Shown here: piece after piece, positions 6,501 through 44,815 of the stretch
Numbering within the stretch: the stretch's first letter is position 1
How the letters are laid out: each line of letters opens with the position of its first letter
Assembly: GCA_965249315.1 (NCBI GenBank)
Contig: OZ252225.1
Location: 2,214,814-2,278,813, forward strand
Length of the DNA: 64,000 nt
Origin: Dehalococcoidia bacterium
GTDB lineage: Bacteria; Chloroflexota; Dehalococcoidia; Lucifugimonadales; UBA1127
Direction of reading: 5' to 3'
The notes under the pieces: model-generated
Database searches by the model: none
The model's input: the letters and a program-made list of their open reading frames with translations, nothing else
Told to the model about the DNA's origin: nothing
Made by a program: the position numbers and the translations under genes

Positions 6501-6689
6501 CCACCGCGCCGCGCAGTTGAGCGGTGGTGTGGGGTCAGCCTCCCCCCTCGGCGGCTGGGAAGGCGCTCCCTGCCTGGCCAACGTCTGCAGGTGCAACCCT
6601 CTTGGGCGCCCCTCCCCAGCTTTGGGTCCAGGGCTTGCCCTAGTTGACACCCTGCGGAGCCTGCCCCTACGATGGTTCGTGGCCGTGCT

Positions 6690-6930
6690 AGATGGGGAGC
6701 TGGCGGTGCCCTGAACCCGCAATCCGCCATAGCGGGGTTGAACTCCTCCCCCAGGTGGGGCGCTTCTGCCGCTGCCGTCGGTCAGGGGTGTGGAAGGCTG
6801 GGTCCCGCGCGACGGTGGCCTGTGAACCCCGCCAGGCCCGGAAGGGAGCAACGGTAAGCAGGGACCCCGGGCGCCGCGGGGACTCCTGGCTGGAGCCCTT
6901 CCCGCCGGTTATGCAGCGGTGTTCCCATCA
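6690..6930 (+). ncRNA. ffs: Signal recognition particle RNA, long form with Alu-like 5' domain (boundaries approximate)
   Basis: The domain IV core CCGCCAGGCCCGGAAGGGAGCAACGGTAAGCAGGGAC has a GGAA tetraloop and AGCA loop. The 5' GGCGGTGCCCTGAACCCGC resembles the Alu-domain helix 3/4 motif. 5' gatgggga pairs with 3' ttcccatc, and long helix-5 complementarity is visible (ggaagg/ccttcc, gtcccgcg/cgcggggac). Confidence 0.75.
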
Positions 6931-6963
6931 AAGGGAGGTGCACGGCCTACTCCCGATGCGCCA

Positions 6964-27699: not shown

Positions 27700-28560
27700 C
27701 ACTGCGTGACAGCAAGGTCACTGCGTGACGGCAAAGGCAGGGCAGGCCCTGCACCCACACCTTGCGGCAGCAGGGCTACGGCGGGGGTTGGGTTTGAATT
27801 GAGCTGAATGGTGTGCGCGCGATTTTCCGGCGGCCCGTGCCTGAGGAAACGCGGCGCAGCTTGGGTTTGAGGCGCGATGGACAAGTCGACAAAGGGAAAC
27901 AAGGCGTATCTGCCAGGCACGGGCCGGACGGGGGGCCGAGGGCCCCGCTGGGGGGTGTCGGAAAAGTCGACAAAGGGGGACAAGTCGTATCTGCGGGTCG
28001 CGGCGTCGTAGGGGGGCCGACGGCGACGCGGGGGGATCGCCGCAAACCGACAAAGGGAAACAAGGCAGGGCAAGGCGGGGGAGGTGTGGGCCCTTCGACA
28101 AGCTCAGGGTGAGCGGGAGGCGCGTGCGGGTGGGCATGGGGGTAGGGTAGGGGATGGGGGGGCGAGGGGATAGGGGGAGGTGGCACAGCACCAGGCAGGG
28201 CAGGCCCTGCACCCTCAGGCGGCCAGGCAGGGCACGCCCTGCACCCACAGGCGGCCAGCCGCGCAAGCTTGGGGAGGTGGGTTGCGCTGGGGGGTTGGGC
28301 CTGCGGAGGGGCGATGGAGGGTTGCGGTCGTTGGGGGGGCATAAGGTTGCCCCGCTCCGCCCCTCGCCCCACCGTCGCTTTTCCCGGCGGCGGTGCCGCC
28401 CTAGCATGAGCCCGCCCTGGGATTTTCTTGGGGCGCCCCCCGGAGCCCTGCGCTGGGGACCTTCCCCGCCCCTGGGTCCCGGCTCGGAGGCCGGAATGAC
28501 GGGTAGTAGGTGAGAGGGCTTCCCTGAGAGAGGGGGCGGTGACCAACTCCGCGAGTGCCC
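27700..28560. repeat. Large intergenic mosaic repeat block including an approximately 81-bp tandem array
   Basis: Tandem units start at 27885, 27966 and 28048 (gtcgacaaaggg[ag]aacaag[gt]cgtatctgc...). Also present: ggcagggcaggccctgcaccc modules at about 27736 and 28195, cccttcgacaagctcagggtgagcgg at 28091-28116, and a ccgcccctgggtcccggctcggaggccggaatgacg module near 28455. Confidence 0.85.
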
Positions 28561-28595
28561 TGATGACCAGTTACACCGGAGGTTGGGCGAATACC

Positions 28596-28624
28596 TTGAT
28601 ACTGTGAGGGTTAGAAGCTAGCAT
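28596..28624 (+). promoter_or_regulatory. Candidate promoter of the two-gene islet cassette (TTGATA-17 nt-TAGCAT)
   Basis: -35 at 28596-28601, 17-nt spacer, -10 at 28619-28624. It would give a 5' UTR of about 150 nt before the start at 28784/28787. Confidence 0.4.
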
Positions 28625-28783
28625 TGGTATCGCGACATGTCAGCGAGGCAAGGGCATGCTGGCAACAGCCGGACCTAGTTACGATGGCAACCTATGTGGT
28701 CGGCACCTGGCTCCTCGCTCTTATTGAAAATCGCTACAGATTACCCGAGGCTGCAGGCCAATTGATCGAGCGGAGGTGTTACT

Positions 28784-29506
28784 GTGATGAGGGATACGGA
28801 CCAGTTGGTCATCAAAGCAGTTGAGAATCACTATCAGGAAGAAGATTCTCCTTACTACTTGGCCGAACTTGGCAAGCTCTTCCGCGAGAAGGACATTGAC
28901 ATACCAGAGGGAGTCCGGTTTAAGGATTATCTAAGGAGTCGCTTTCACGGGAGTCTTGTTATCGTACAAGACGACCATACTCCGGCAAGAATAGCAGTTG
29001 CGACCCTCGACAAAGAAGCGAGCGTTCGTCAACAGCTCTCTGGTCAGCTCCCGCCCGTGCCCGGTGATTCTGGATTAGACCACATGCGTTTTCCCTTTTC
29101 CCTTATTGCTGCCTTTTGCAAGATTCCACTACCAAACACGCAAGTGTACTTCCGAATTACAAGACCTTTCCGATACGTTACCTTTATGGACGCACCCGAT
29201 GACAACAACTACGTGGCTATCGACGATAAATTTCGCCCCCCAAAATTGGCTGGGAAGTCAGTGCACGGATTATCCGATTCTGACAAAGGGCTGCTTTACA
29301 AGTGCATTGAGGAATGGGCGGAAGCAAACTCGGTCGATCTTCGACAGCTGTACTATGATCGCGCTGCTCTGCCAGCAGTAGCGAGAGCACAGTCAGGAAC
29401 AAGACGCAATGCGCTCCAGCGGTTGATCGACGCTCAAGACCCAGACCTGAAGGGGCGAATCAAGATTCCAGGGGATATCGCAAGCGTGCTCATGGATGTC
29501 GCATAG
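28784..29506 (+). CDS. Hypothetical protein A of islet cassette; N-terminal region resembles an OST-HTH/LOTUS-like winged helix
   Basis: 240-aa ORF with GGAGG upstream and a GTG-ATG start at 28784/28787. The composition is non-repetitive and AT-richer. YYLAELGKLFREKDIDIPEGVRFKDYLRSRF..LVIVQD resembles the OST-HTH pattern (resemblance only). I recognise no catalytic motif. Confidence 0.7.
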   Translation: MMRDTDQLVIKAVENHYQEEDSPYYLAELGKLFREKDIDIPEGVRFKDYLRSRFHGSLVIVQDDHTPARIAVATLDKEASVRQQLSGQLPPVPGDSGLDHMRFPFSLIAAFCKIPLPNTQVYFRITRPFRYVTFMDAPDDNNYVAIDDKFRPPKLAGKSVHGLSDSDKGLLYKCIEEWAEANSVDLRQLYYDRAALPAVARAQSGTRRNALQRLIDAQDPDLKGRIKIPGDIASVLMDVA

Positions 29507-30488
29507 GCGAATGCCTGGCAAGCTAGCCCGTCATTTGAGGAGATCGGAACACCAACAGCGGGATAACTTAGTCGTCCTTACCGGCCTTCCTCGAGATACT
29601 CTGAAGTGGACGATGCGTAGGCTCCATGGAGACACCTCCAGAAGGCCGGCAAGATATGTTGGCGCCCCCTCGACTCGGAGTCGCTCGCGTAACCTCTACA
29701 GCAAGGCCAGCATAGCGGAAACGTTGACGCTAATCGAGCGTGAGTGTCAACGCTATACTCCGCACCGAATTATGGTGCTCTATGTTCCGTCTGCGGACTC
29801 AGCAAATCTAGTTGAGGCCCTTGGATTTGTTTGCTTTCTTGCACCCTTGTGCCCAGGAACAAGCGACGATGGAGCTTTGGCGGCGCATTGGAGACATACA
29901 GTCTCTGAAGTGACGAGCGTAGTGTACGAGACTTTAAGTCGCGCACTGAAGACTACAAATGCCCTAAAGGCAGAGATTACTGACAGGAGAATCAGCCCCT
30001 TCACACTGCCAGCGCGTAATTTCTACTATCCCCACAGTCGTTCCACGATTGGTCTCGCCTATCAGGCATTCATCGCAAACGGATTTGATACGCAGCATCT
30101 AAAGAGTAAGTTGGAGCCGTCCAGGTTTACAAGGGGCCAGCTTCCACAAGGAGCATTCAAAGGCCAGCAGTACGCAGACTCTTTCTTTCAAGATCTTCGT
30201 GAGAGAGTATTCCCTCCTGATCTTCATCATGCGAGGTCAAGGCCTTTGAAGGAGGTTACCGGCCCCACTCTTTCTTTGGAATTACAACAGCGATTTCGCT
30301 TTGGAGTGATGGTCCGGGATGGTAACTTGCACTACGACATGCAGTATGAGCTGCCAAGGAGATTGGCGGATGAACCAATGTACTGTGCGATGGAAGGGGA
30401 GGTATCCGTAACTGCTTCACATGCGAATGTTGGTGTTAATGATGTCGTATGGGTTCCCAGTGGCAGGAAAGACCGCAGAAAAAAGTAG
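29496..30488 (+). CDS. Hypothetical protein B of islet cassette (Arg-rich N-terminus, basic C-tail), no recognisable domain
   Basis: 330-aa ORF. Its ATG at 29496 overlaps the gene A stop by 11 nt (ATGTCGCATAG), and an alternative ATG lies at 29511. It shares the AT-richer composition. I can assign no family motif. Confidence 0.7.
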   Translation: MSHRRMPGKLARHLRRSEHQQRDNLVVLTGLPRDTLKWTMRRLHGDTSRRPARYVGAPSTRSRSRNLYSKASIAETLTLIERECQRYTPHRIMVLYVPSADSANLVEALGFVCFLAPLCPGTSDDGALAAHWRHTVSEVTSVVYETLSRALKTTNALKAEITDRRISPFTLPARNFYYPHSRSTIGLAYQAFIANGFDTQHLKSKLEPSRFTRGQLPQGAFKGQQYADSFFQDLRERVFPPDLHHARSRPLKEVTGPTLSLELQQRFRFGVMVRDGNLHYDMQYELPRRLADEPMYCAMEGEVSVTASHANVGVNDVVWVPSGRKDRRKK

Positions 30489-30510
30489 GCGCAACAAAGA
30501 ATGTTGCGCC
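30479..30510 (-). terminator. Intrinsic terminator (GGCGCAAC-7 nt-GTTGCGCC + T6 on minus strand); abuts gene B stop codon
   Basis: 8-bp perfect stem at 30488-30495/30503-30510. The minus strand continues tacTTTTTTct (T-tract 30479-30484). On the plus strand the hairpin starts at the last base of gene B's TAG (30486-30488) but lacks a U-tract. Confidence 0.7.
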
Positions 30511-30715
30511 AATAAAGATCCATGTAGCCAACACAAATGGTGAGAGGTGTGTCACTCAGGCGGCTTGCCTACGAACCGTAGGCAACATCAACCGTCGGCC
30601 ACTTTTCGTTTGACCTAGGCTGAAGGTCCCACCGGATCGCCGTACACTCTTGGCGCCCCTCCCGGCAAATCAGATCCACCAGGTCGGCGCGAGTGGCCTC
30701 TTCGCTCTATCGGCT
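30480..30715 (-). ncRNA. Candidate small RNA of about 235 nt, convergent with the islet cassette
   Basis: Bounded by the near-consensus promoter at 30722-30750 and the intrinsic terminator at 30479-30510. It contains an 8-bp hairpin TTGCCTAC-ggttc-GTAGGCAA. The only ORFs I found reading it (10 and 36 codons) lack an SD. Confidence 0.45.
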
Positions 30716-30721
30716 AAGGGC

Positions 30722-30750
30722 ATTATACAGTTGATGTATGCGATTTTCAA
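30722..30750 (-). promoter_or_regulatory. Near-consensus sigma70 promoter on minus strand (TTGAAA-17 nt-TATAAT)
   Basis: The reverse complement of 30721-30760 reads agggcaccgtTTGAAAatcgcatacatcaactgTATAATg. The predicted TSS is near A30715. Confidence 0.65.
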
Positions 30751-30805
30751 ACGGTGCCCTACCCACAACTACGGGATGTCAAACACTTCAAGCTACTACC
30801 TCAGG

Positions 30806-30834
30806 TTGACAGGGGGGGTGGGTGTGGCTATGCT
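30806..30834 (+). promoter_or_regulatory. Promoter of the aroG leader (TTGACA-17 nt-TATGCT)
   Basis: A perfect -35 TTGACA at 30806-30811, a 17-nt spacer, and a -10 TATGCT at 30829-30834. Confidence 0.6.
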
Positions 30835-30843
30835 GGCGGGGTT

Positions 30844-30942
30844 GTGACGAAGGTGGAGAGGGTCCGGCAGTACTATTACTCCTACTTTAGCGGCGCGCGG
30901 TGGCGCGTCGGTGAGGTCTTGACGCTCCACGTCCACACGTAG
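30844..30942 (+). CDS. Candidate aromatic-rich leader peptide (..VRQYYYSYFSGARW..) of DAHP synthase attenuator
   Basis: GTG at 30844 (or 30853) to TAG at 30940-30942. Codons TAC TAT TAC TCC TAC TTT span 30871-30888. This is the only frame with a start codon inside the predicted transcript. Confidence 0.5.
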   Translation: MTKVERVRQYYYSYFSGARWRVGEVLTLHVHT

Positions 30943-30968
30943 ACCAGCCAGACAAGAGGAACGCTCGA

Positions 30969-30998
30969 GACCCCGACCGGCAGCGGTTGGGGTCTTTT
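30969..30998 (+). terminator. Attenuator terminator in the aroG leader
   Basis: 11-bp stem (30969-30979 with 30984-30994, one G-U), GCAG tetraloop, then TTTT at 30995-30998, 19 nt before the aroG ATG. The alternative antiterminator pairs 30907-30919 with 30968-30977. Confidence 0.65.
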
Positions 30999-32102: not shown

Positions 32103-32414
32103 ATGACCTACTCCGCCACCAAGTCGGACAAGGACCCCTGCGTGTACATCCTCGCCAGCAAGAGAAACGGAACGCTGTACACCGGCGTTACCTCGAACCT
32201 TGTACAGCGTGTGTGGCAGCACCGGAACGCATTCGTAGCAGGGTTTACCCGTCAGTATGGAGTCCAGCGCCTCGTTTGGTATGAGATGCATCCGACTATG
32301 GAGAGCGCGATTACGCGAGAAAAACAGCTCAAGGGATGGCGTCGGAGATGGAAGGTCCGGCTGGTGGAGGAGATGAACCGCGACTGGGCGGACTTGTACC
32401 CGCAGCTGGGCTGA
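32103..32414 (+). CDS. Small stand-alone GIY-YIG nuclease-family protein (UPF0213-like)
   Basis: 103 aa: CVYILASKRNGTLYTGVTSNLVQRVWQH...REKQLKGW. Confidence 0.85.
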   Translation: MTYSATKSDKDPCVYILASKRNGTLYTGVTSNLVQRVWQHRNAFVAGFTRQYGVQRLVWYEMHPTMESAITREKQLKGWRRRWKVRLVEEMNRDWADLYPQLG

Positions 32415-44399: not shown

Positions 44400-44815
44400 C
44401 GGAAGGGGATAGGAGGGGGTCTATGAAAGCGGGACTGTGGCGGATGGAGGAGAGAGGGGGTGTCCCTACGATGCCACCTTAGTTGGGCCCACCCACCCGC
44501 CCGGCGGCAGTGCCGCCCTAGCTCTCGCCGCCTCCCCGCACCGCCGTCGCATTGCCCGCCCACCCCCCTGATATTTTTCTGTTGGGGGGCTGCGCTCCCC
44601 CAGACCCCCGCGTGGGGTGCGCCCATCCCCGCTACCCCTGGATTCCGGCCTGCGCCGGAACGACCCTGCGCCGGAACGACGACCCTTCGACAGGCTAAGG
44701 GTGAGCGGAATCAAGATGGAGGGTGTCCGCTCACTCGCCGCTGCGCGGCGGCCTCTCCCCAAGGAGAGGCGAGATGGGCTGGAAGAGGGCGGTTATAGCC
44801 GCGCAAACTCTTGAC
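44400..44815. repeat. Intergenic mosaic repeat block
   Basis: Contains gggcccacccacccgcccggcggcagtgccgccctagc..., a duplicated ctggattccggcctgcgccggaacgac, cccttcgacaggctaagggtgagcgg at 44683-44708, and the hairpin gcggcctctccccaaggagaggcg. Confidence 0.85.

Follow-up and report, generated by a model that had tools for sequence, protein, structure and literature searches.

A predicted structured RNA gene convergent with a two-gene cassette from Dehalococcoidia: candidate third component of a mobile RNA-protein module

What is made from a near-consensus promoter that is followed by a terminator, with no convincing open reading frame (ORF) in between, and that points at the end of a pair of overlapping genes? 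The question arises in a 64,000-nucleotide (nt) stretch of the genome of a Dehalococcoidia bacterium (assembly GCA_965249315.1, contig OZ252225.1, positions 2,214,814 to 2,278,813; hereafter the window, with positions counted from its first letter), where such a unit runs on the minus strand towards two plus-strand protein genes that we call A and B. A first interpretation made from the letters alone, the sequence-only reading, had described a discrete non-coding unit tied to A and B and had likened it to the antisense regulators of type I toxin-antitoxin (TA) systems. Conservation in 14 other distinct loci supports the first of these claims, while the second fares badly, as set out below. From the comparative analysis we consider it highly probable that the unit is a conserved structured non-coding RNA (ncRNA) and a component of the cassette. 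The whole reading that we propose, in which this new RNA would complete a mobile A-B-RNA cassette as its obligate third part and be the ribonucleoprotein (RNP) partner of B, we put at a probability of roughly 0.55.

We fetched 18 loci, 14 of them distinct, which together with the window copy gives 15 distinct loci. Four of the fetched distinct loci come from Dehalococcoidia metagenome-assembled genomes (MAGs) in GTDB, and the remaining ones from metagenome contigs of ENA or Logan; scans of Joint Genome Institute (JGI) metagenomes, by protein and by DNA pattern, added no further loci. In 15/15 distinct loci a single copy of the RNA element follows immediately on gene B in convergent orientation, and no A-B homologue that we fetched lacks it. 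The RNA gene is also the best conserved part of the cassette, with a mean nt identity of 72.8% compared to 63.9% for gene A and 63.1% for gene B, and it exceeds both genes in 66/66 locus pairs. Purifying selection is stronger on the RNA than on the two protein genes.

The promoter of the unit (Table 1) matches the sigma-70 consensus at 11/12 positions. It had been called the best promoter of the window, which holds between 26 and 35 kb, where it is the top site, while over the full 64 kb it ties with a plus-strand site at 44811 (TTGACA-16-GATAAT), the sole other 11/12 sigma-70-like match in the window. Among the homologues a -35 box of the form TTGAC(A) or TTGAAA aligns in 15/15 loci, with a TATAAT-like -10 box 16-19 nt 3' of it and 6-8 nt ahead of the modelled RNA 5' end. 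We infer a transcription start near 30715 in the window. In the DNA 5' of gene A nothing is conserved beyond the Shine-Dalgarno sequence, and no conserved promoter is found there. A conserved near-consensus promoter for the RNA, with none conserved before A, fits an RNA that is made in excess over the proteins.

About 205 nt 3' of the promoter lies the hairpin GGCGCAAC...GTTGCGCC with the tail TACTTTTTT, which we take as the intrinsic terminator of the RNA. Its stem, GGCGCAAC(A)/(U)GUUGCGCC, has 8-9 pairs of which 6 are GC, is followed by TACTTTTTTC, and reaches as far as the final base of the gene B stop codon, just as a terminator hairpin and T-run abutting that codon had been reported. Across loci the terminator, counted as helix 10 of the RNA, shows compensatory changes at 6/8 pairs. 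The strand complementary to the U-tract carries the final codons of gene B, AGA AAA AAG TAG (window 30479-30488, encoding ...RKK and the stop). One and the same DNA stretch thus doubles as the Lys-rich C-terminus of B and as the terminator tail of the RNA, and this shared arrangement, with an overlap of 6-21 nt, recurs in about half of the other loci.

Between promoter and terminator the window copy holds the ORFs that had been listed before, among them a 36-codon frame and a 63-codon frame (Table 1). Across the 15 homologous RNAs no ORF keeps its position or frame, and in one RNA the RNA strand has no ORF of at least 15 amino acids (aa). A conserved small protein, which would have spoken for a coding function, is therefore not found in these RNAs, and we rejected the idea of a small-protein gene. 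Likewise a repeat search of the unit found no tandem repeats, in line with the earlier statement that repeats of the type III antitoxin kind are missing. By its sequence the unit combines what marks a small RNA (sRNA) gene: a same-strand sigma-70-type promoter and a Rho-independent terminator, without coding sequence.

The 237-nt unit folds better than its shuffles (minimum free energy z = -3.0). From a plain MAFFT alignment of all 15 RNAs, RNAalifold derives 49 pairs, and compensatory double changes occur in 21. We added the closing helix P1 (AGCCGA/UUGGCU, 5'/3') by eye before building a covariance model, R1. In every locus this model hits a single full-length site (177-228 bits), and the rest of the window gives no hit. 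In the R1 alignment 96.6% of the cells are paired and 26/55 pairs have changed on both sides; the prediction and the pair counts agree. None of 500 shuffled controls reaches any of five pairing measures, and when the 3' partners are shifted by 1-3 columns pairing drops to 28-40%.

The resulting fold has ten helices, P1-P9 and the terminator. The closing helix P1 together with P2 encloses two arms, one formed by P3-P4 and the other by P5 with P6, P7-P8 and P9; 3' of the arms the RNA continues as a single-stranded tail rich in pyrimidines, followed by a linker and the terminator. The internal 8-bp hairpin picked out in the sequence-only reading, TTGCCTAC-GGTTC-GTAGGCAA, is present and corresponds to P9. 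The junction sequences GGGAGGGGUGCC, AGAGGAnnAGGCGAUCC, GGACCUUCAGUCUAGGUCA and GUGGCCGACGGCUGAUG are near-invariant, and the variable parts (the P4 loop, the P9 loop and the 3' linker) are short and mostly hairpin loops; no hypervariable stretch of 16 nt or more occurs in the RNA alignment. A search for further helices or pseudoknots among the unpaired columns gave only ambiguous purine/pyrimidine 3-4-mers.

We ran the proposed Rfam search and found no Rfam 15 family at the gathering threshold for the RNA unit. Two sub-threshold matches, ncS025 (24.8 bits vs 46) and ncS54 (21.9 vs 43), cover the terminator hairpin and the preceding 40-55 nt or so (30479-30558). Taken together, these comparisons define the predicted RNA as a new family of highly structured ncRNA of about 230 nt.

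The RNA has travelled with A-B to at least 13 distinct genomic settings. In the window the cassette stands out by its low GC content (about 50-52%, compared to about 69-70% in the surrounding host DNA), with the RNA at its right end, and across 12 loci the cassette has 46-53% GC compared to 53-69% in the flanks. No direct, inverted or terminal repeats were found flanking it. It often adjoins integrases, transposases, GmrSD, a type IIG restriction-modification system, HerA/mad8 or AbiEii, and further neighbours are an nSTAND ATPase and PDC-M33A. Composition, varied contexts and defence or mobility neighbours form the signature of mobile defence-island cargo.

In two loci with otherwise different contexts (L014 and L015, positions 1-2764 in each) a protein of more than 1,460 aa with nSTAND/AAA_16/HEAT assignments lies directly 5' of the cassette. 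It has no PADLOC match and may be an Avs/STAND-like defence NTPase.

Neither A nor B has a Pfam, NCBIfam or PHROG match, or a significant PADLOC match, in single-sequence or per-member scans, and PDB sequence and profile searches returned only a weak Ku80 C-terminal match (E=0.014). We collected 80 close homologues of B, all unannotated, and 72 of A, many of the latter on contigs equal in size to those of B. An exhaustive profile search for B gave 210 representatives at 50% identity, about 300-350 aa long, and none of them matches Pfam or PADLOC. The AlphaFold2 (AF2) model of B (mean predicted local distance difference test score, pLDDT, 74.7) shows a four-stranded alpha/beta domain at the N-terminus, a long helix and a C-terminal half rich in beta strands; in PDB and BFVD nothing significant was found for it by Foldseek, the best matches being generic alpha/beta folds at E of about 0.02-0.04. 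The residues that are invariant in the B superfamily lie in the C-terminal half (LPxxNF, D..R, RFG, G(L/F)H(Y/H)DxQ, C..G and (S/T)HANVxxND), a pattern that suggests an enzyme; D233, R268, D281, Q283, N311 and D316 are among the invariant positions. The model of A (pLDDT 83.8) has an N-terminal winged-helix-like domain whose best Foldseek matches, winged-helix MarR/PadR and LOTUS/OST-HTH domains, are non-significant (E>0.2), so that the resemblance is suggestive only. LOTUS domains are RNA binders.

Table 1. Predicted features of the A-B-RNA cassette in the window
Feature	Position	Strand	Remarks
A-B-RNA cassette	28740..30757	.	Borders from comparison with L005, the closest relative, whose cassette occupies the same chromosomal site
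Gene A, 239 aa	28787..29506	+	Overlaps gene B start by 11 nt
Gene B, 330 aa	29496..30488	+	Two-domain protein, presumed effector or enzyme
Sigma-70-type promoter of the RNA gene	30722..30750	-	-35 TTGAAA 30750-30745, 17-nt spacer, -10 TATAAT 30727-30722
Structured ncRNA, ~237 nt	30479..30715	-	RNAalifold, covariance model, pair counts
P1	30715-30710/30531-30526	-	
P2	30695-30691/30557-30553	-	
P3	30690-30686/30657-30653	-	
P4	30683-30678/30666-30661	-	
P5	30641-30639/30564-30562	-	
P6	30636-30634/30629-30627	-	
P7	30622-30618/30593-30589	-	
P8	30615-30610/30602-30597	-	
P9	30585-30578/30572-30565	-	
Intrinsic terminator of the RNA (helix 10)	30479..30510	-	Stem-loop 30510-30488, U-tract 30487-30479
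36-aa GTG ORF	30569-30679		Window copy
63-aa ORF	30332-30523		Passes through terminator

Distant relatives of B, at 24-29% identity, occur in a Rhodospirillaceae MAG (L019), on plasmid pTK1 of Sphingobium sp. TKS (L021) and in a P4-type-integrase element (L022). In all three an A homologue lies beside B (hhalign probability 98-99.7%), and a convergent promoter-like site is separated by about 230-270 nt from a hairpin at the stop of B. The candidate RNAs of L019, L021 and L022 fold with z = -4.0, -5.8 and -6.1 and align mutually, with a long-range closing helix around several hairpins; their consensus has 42 pairs, 20 of them with double changes, from only three sequences. Model R1 detects none of the three. 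The pTK1 locus (NZ_CP005085.1, 164406-166552) places the distant A-B pair and its convergent structured RNA candidate on a conjugative plasmid of a cultured strain, with the RNA candidate at about 166,080-166,330 of the record on the strand opposite to A and B; the locus adjoins AbiEii, an integrase and a MobF relaxase, and both genes are annotated as hypothetical proteins.

How might such a cassette work? We hypothesize that the RNA is transcribed convergently from its own strong constitutive promoter, ending at the stop of B, and that it would act through its fold, in an RNP with the cassette proteins, and not through base-pairing with the A-B mRNA. The winged-helix domain of A would be the likeliest RNA binder and B the probable effector. 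An abundant, labile RNA could keep effector B inactive, or could serve as its sensor or scaffold, and loss or perturbation of the RNA through phage transcription shut-off, RNA degradation or loss of the element would release B. The logic would be that of an RNA antitoxin (type III-like) or of a retron-like guard, assembled from unrelated parts. That the RNA is a protein-bound component of an RNP and not an antisense RNA seems to us more probable than not; the more specific role as an antitoxin or guard, though the likeliest of those considered, is a tentative proposal on which we lean towards doubt.

Type III antitoxins consist of tandem repeats, are cut by the toxin and lie 5' of it on the same strand. 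By comparison, the RNA described here would be a single 230-nt multi-helix fold without repeats, convergent, 3' of B and under its own promoter, and it is accompanied by two proteins with no match to ToxN, AbiQ or AbiF models. Membership in this class was rejected: repeats are missing, the orientation is wrong and no ToxN-like protein is present. The likeness to ToxIN, CptIN and TenpIN, and to the AbiF-associated ncRNA of C. difficile (PMC12373285), lies in an abundant ncRNA encoded next to an effector protein in mobile or defence loci, and in the proposed restraint of a protein by a labile RNA. The VIPR systems of a recent preprint (10.64898/2026.04.26.720920), which combine RAMP proteins with tandem-repeat RNAs, are unrelated to the A-B-RNA cassette.

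One alternative is that the RNA acts in cis as an antisense RNA, as proposed in the sequence-only reading, pairing with the 3' end of the B mRNA or with a read-through 3' untranslated region and causing degradation, or interfering with transcription. As in txpA/RatA and bsrG/SR4 of Bacillus subtilis, a convergent RNA of some 200 nt is delimited by a promoter and a terminator of its own, and the convergent geometry, in which the terminator abuts the stop of B, speaks for this alternative. It is also conceivable that the B mRNA reads through, since on the plus strand the hairpin is followed in most loci by an A-rich and not a U-rich tract, and it would then be fully complementary to the RNA. However, the toxins of txpA/RatA and bsrG/SR4 are membrane peptides of less than 60 aa, and a 3' overlap of tens of nt drives RNase III cleavage there, whereas the two proteins here measure 239 and 330 aa. 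Across 12 loci the overlap between the B ORF and the modelled 3' end of the RNA spans only -15 to +21 nt, and two loci have none. Pairing of the RNA with the translation start regions of A and B shows no conserved pattern (RNAduplex z between -1.2 and +1.4, at inconsistent positions), and we found no ORF for a small hydrophobic toxin. What is conserved is the fold: ten helices with compensatory changes and invariant junctions, kept above the level of the coding DNA. Perfect cis-complementarity would not require such an elaborate conserved fold, which argues against antisense action, and we regard it as unlikely.

About equally unlikely is that the RNA serves B as a substrate or template or works with it in catalysis: it might be a template or primer for nucleic-acid synthesis, as in retrons and defence-associated reverse transcriptase (DRT) systems, be processed or modified by B, or be a ribozyme. 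Its 5' and 3' ends close in a helix around a multi-branched core, which recalls the a1/a2 architecture of retron ncRNAs, and the many invariant polar residues of B are typical of an enzyme. PADLOC gives for B a single match, to RT_UG37, which is insignificant (E=0.04, 9.9 bits, positions 597-671 of the 778-position profile). Against this alternative, Pfam, NCBIfam, PADLOC, PDB profile and Foldseek searches detected no reverse transcriptase, polymerase or nuclease domain, and Rfam holds no ribozyme or retron match for the RNA. Retron and DRT ncRNAs do resemble this one as structured ncRNAs with paired 5' and 3' ends in a multi-gene cassette; theirs is a defence cassette and the RNP is its functional unit. 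Here, by contrast, the RNA lies 3' and convergent, not 5' on the same strand. A retron or DRT assignment was rejected, with no RVT domain, an insignificant RT_UG37 match and no Foldseek support.

A guide or bridge RNA, serving a programmable system or the mobility machinery of the cassette itself (in the manner of omega-RNA/TnpB, IS110 bridge RNA or a tracrRNA analogue), is less probable still. An independently transcribed structured RNA beside unknown nucleic-acid-related proteins in a compact mobile cassette would suit this idea, and the P4 loop, P9 loop and 3' linker do vary. Yet these segments are short, with none of 16 nt or more hypervariable, matches between the RNA and its flanks are no longer than in shuffled controls, terminal repeats were not found, and Pfam and PADLOC scans detected no TnpB, IscB, IS110 or Cas domains. 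Omega- and bridge-RNA systems were accordingly rejected as a class, there being no nuclease or recombinase domain, chance-level RNA-flank matches and no terminal repeats. OLE RNA with its Oap proteins (PMC9723947), HEARO/omega-RNA and tracrRNA are alike in their ornate fold, invariant junctions and linked dedicated proteins, and tracrRNA also in being an independent transcription unit. The RNA described here differs from them in size, sequence and partners, has no guide-like variable segment and shows no Rfam homology.

That the unit is an unrelated neighbour, a host sRNA merely beside A-B or a small-protein gene, is very improbable: independently promoted and terminated sRNA genes are frequent and the window copy contains the 36-codon GTG frame, but the RNA travels with A-B through its many contexts and shares the GC content of the cassette and not that of the host, its ORFs differ between loci in frame, position and presence, and its substitutions track base-pairing and not codon periodicity.

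We therefore return to the reading of the RNA as the RNP partner of B, against which several points have to be set. The window copy sits not in a defence island but between housekeeping aro genes, a type II dehydroquinase (assigned by synteny with L005) and DAHP synthase. The start and ends of the RNA are deduced from sequence, and the structure statistics come from 15 related sequences. The family is missing from phage and viral collections: viral contig collections hold no member, and tblastn against phages gave no match. On plasmids, tblastn found nothing with the B of the window and two distant relatives with P0167, of which only that on Sphingobium pTK1 is full-length. The distant RNAs are equated with that of the window by position and architecture only. 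Binding of the RNA by protein and toxicity of B are inferences that concern two proteins of unassigned fold and function, the winged-helix/LOTUS resemblance of A is below statistical significance, and the labels "effector" for B and "RNA binder" for A are guesses.

The surroundings of the cassette in the window show further features. From the cassette to the DAHP synthase ORF runs a leader of about 190 nt (30801-30990, plus strand) that is almost 100% identical to that of L005. The adjoining cassette is less alike to L005, with about 85-90% identity for the RNA gene and 84% aa identity for B, and the 45 nt before the leader are without alignment. The leader starts with a promoter-like TTGACA-17-TATGCT (30806-30834) and contains a twofold repeat of GGCGCGTCGGT (30892-30913) and a terminator-like hairpin (30977-30990); it has no Rfam match and may act on the aro gene as a regulatory leader or an attenuator. 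Just after DAHP synthase follows a 103-aa ORF (32103-32414, plus strand), and L005 has a 103-aa GIY-YIG protein at the equivalent place.

On the other side of the cassette, positions 27700-28600 have 64-74% GC and a strong plus-strand skew of G over C, and the long minus-strand ORFs there (27718-28407 and 27776-28546) have no Pfam match. From 28300 on the window does not align to L005, where an 87-aa ORF precedes gene A. The sole gathering-level Rfam match in the window is a full-length bacterial large signal recognition particle (SRP) RNA (RF01854, 162 bits) at 6683-6945 on the plus strand, and ARAGORN finds no tRNA or tmRNA gene anywhere in the window.

A search of the full-text literature found no description of the cassette; in the Minerva ncRNA-mining preprint (10.64898/2026.09.22.753630) the two terms for which it was checked, "Chloroflex" and "Dehalococc", are absent. 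On sequence grounds the cassette appears new in all three parts, the defining features of type I TA, type III TA, retron/DRT and omega/bridge-RNA systems that we tested being missing from it. An RNA without an Rfam family together with two proteins without a family match is "dark matter" whose linkage is nevertheless kept across two phyla, with the RNA as its most conserved part.

RNA-containing defence and mobile systems, such as CRISPR, retrons, DRTs, ToxIN and omega and bridge RNAs, have repeatedly given new biochemistry and tools. The A-B-RNA cassette is a concrete candidate for an RNA-protein module with a presumed enzyme; its size of 2 kb allows direct synthesis, and Sphingobium sp. TKS, whose pTK1 makes it a cultured carrier of a distant version, offers a practical experimental entry point. 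For the largely uncultured Dehalococcoidia the analysis adds a well-supported new structured RNA family. Beyond this, the cassette may represent a new class of RNA-dependent defence or addiction system, horizontally spread over at least Chloroflexota and Alphaproteobacteria, in which an RNA of about 230 nt would be the central regulator or sensor of a two-protein RNP and no part would be related to described families, a possibility that we rate slightly below even.

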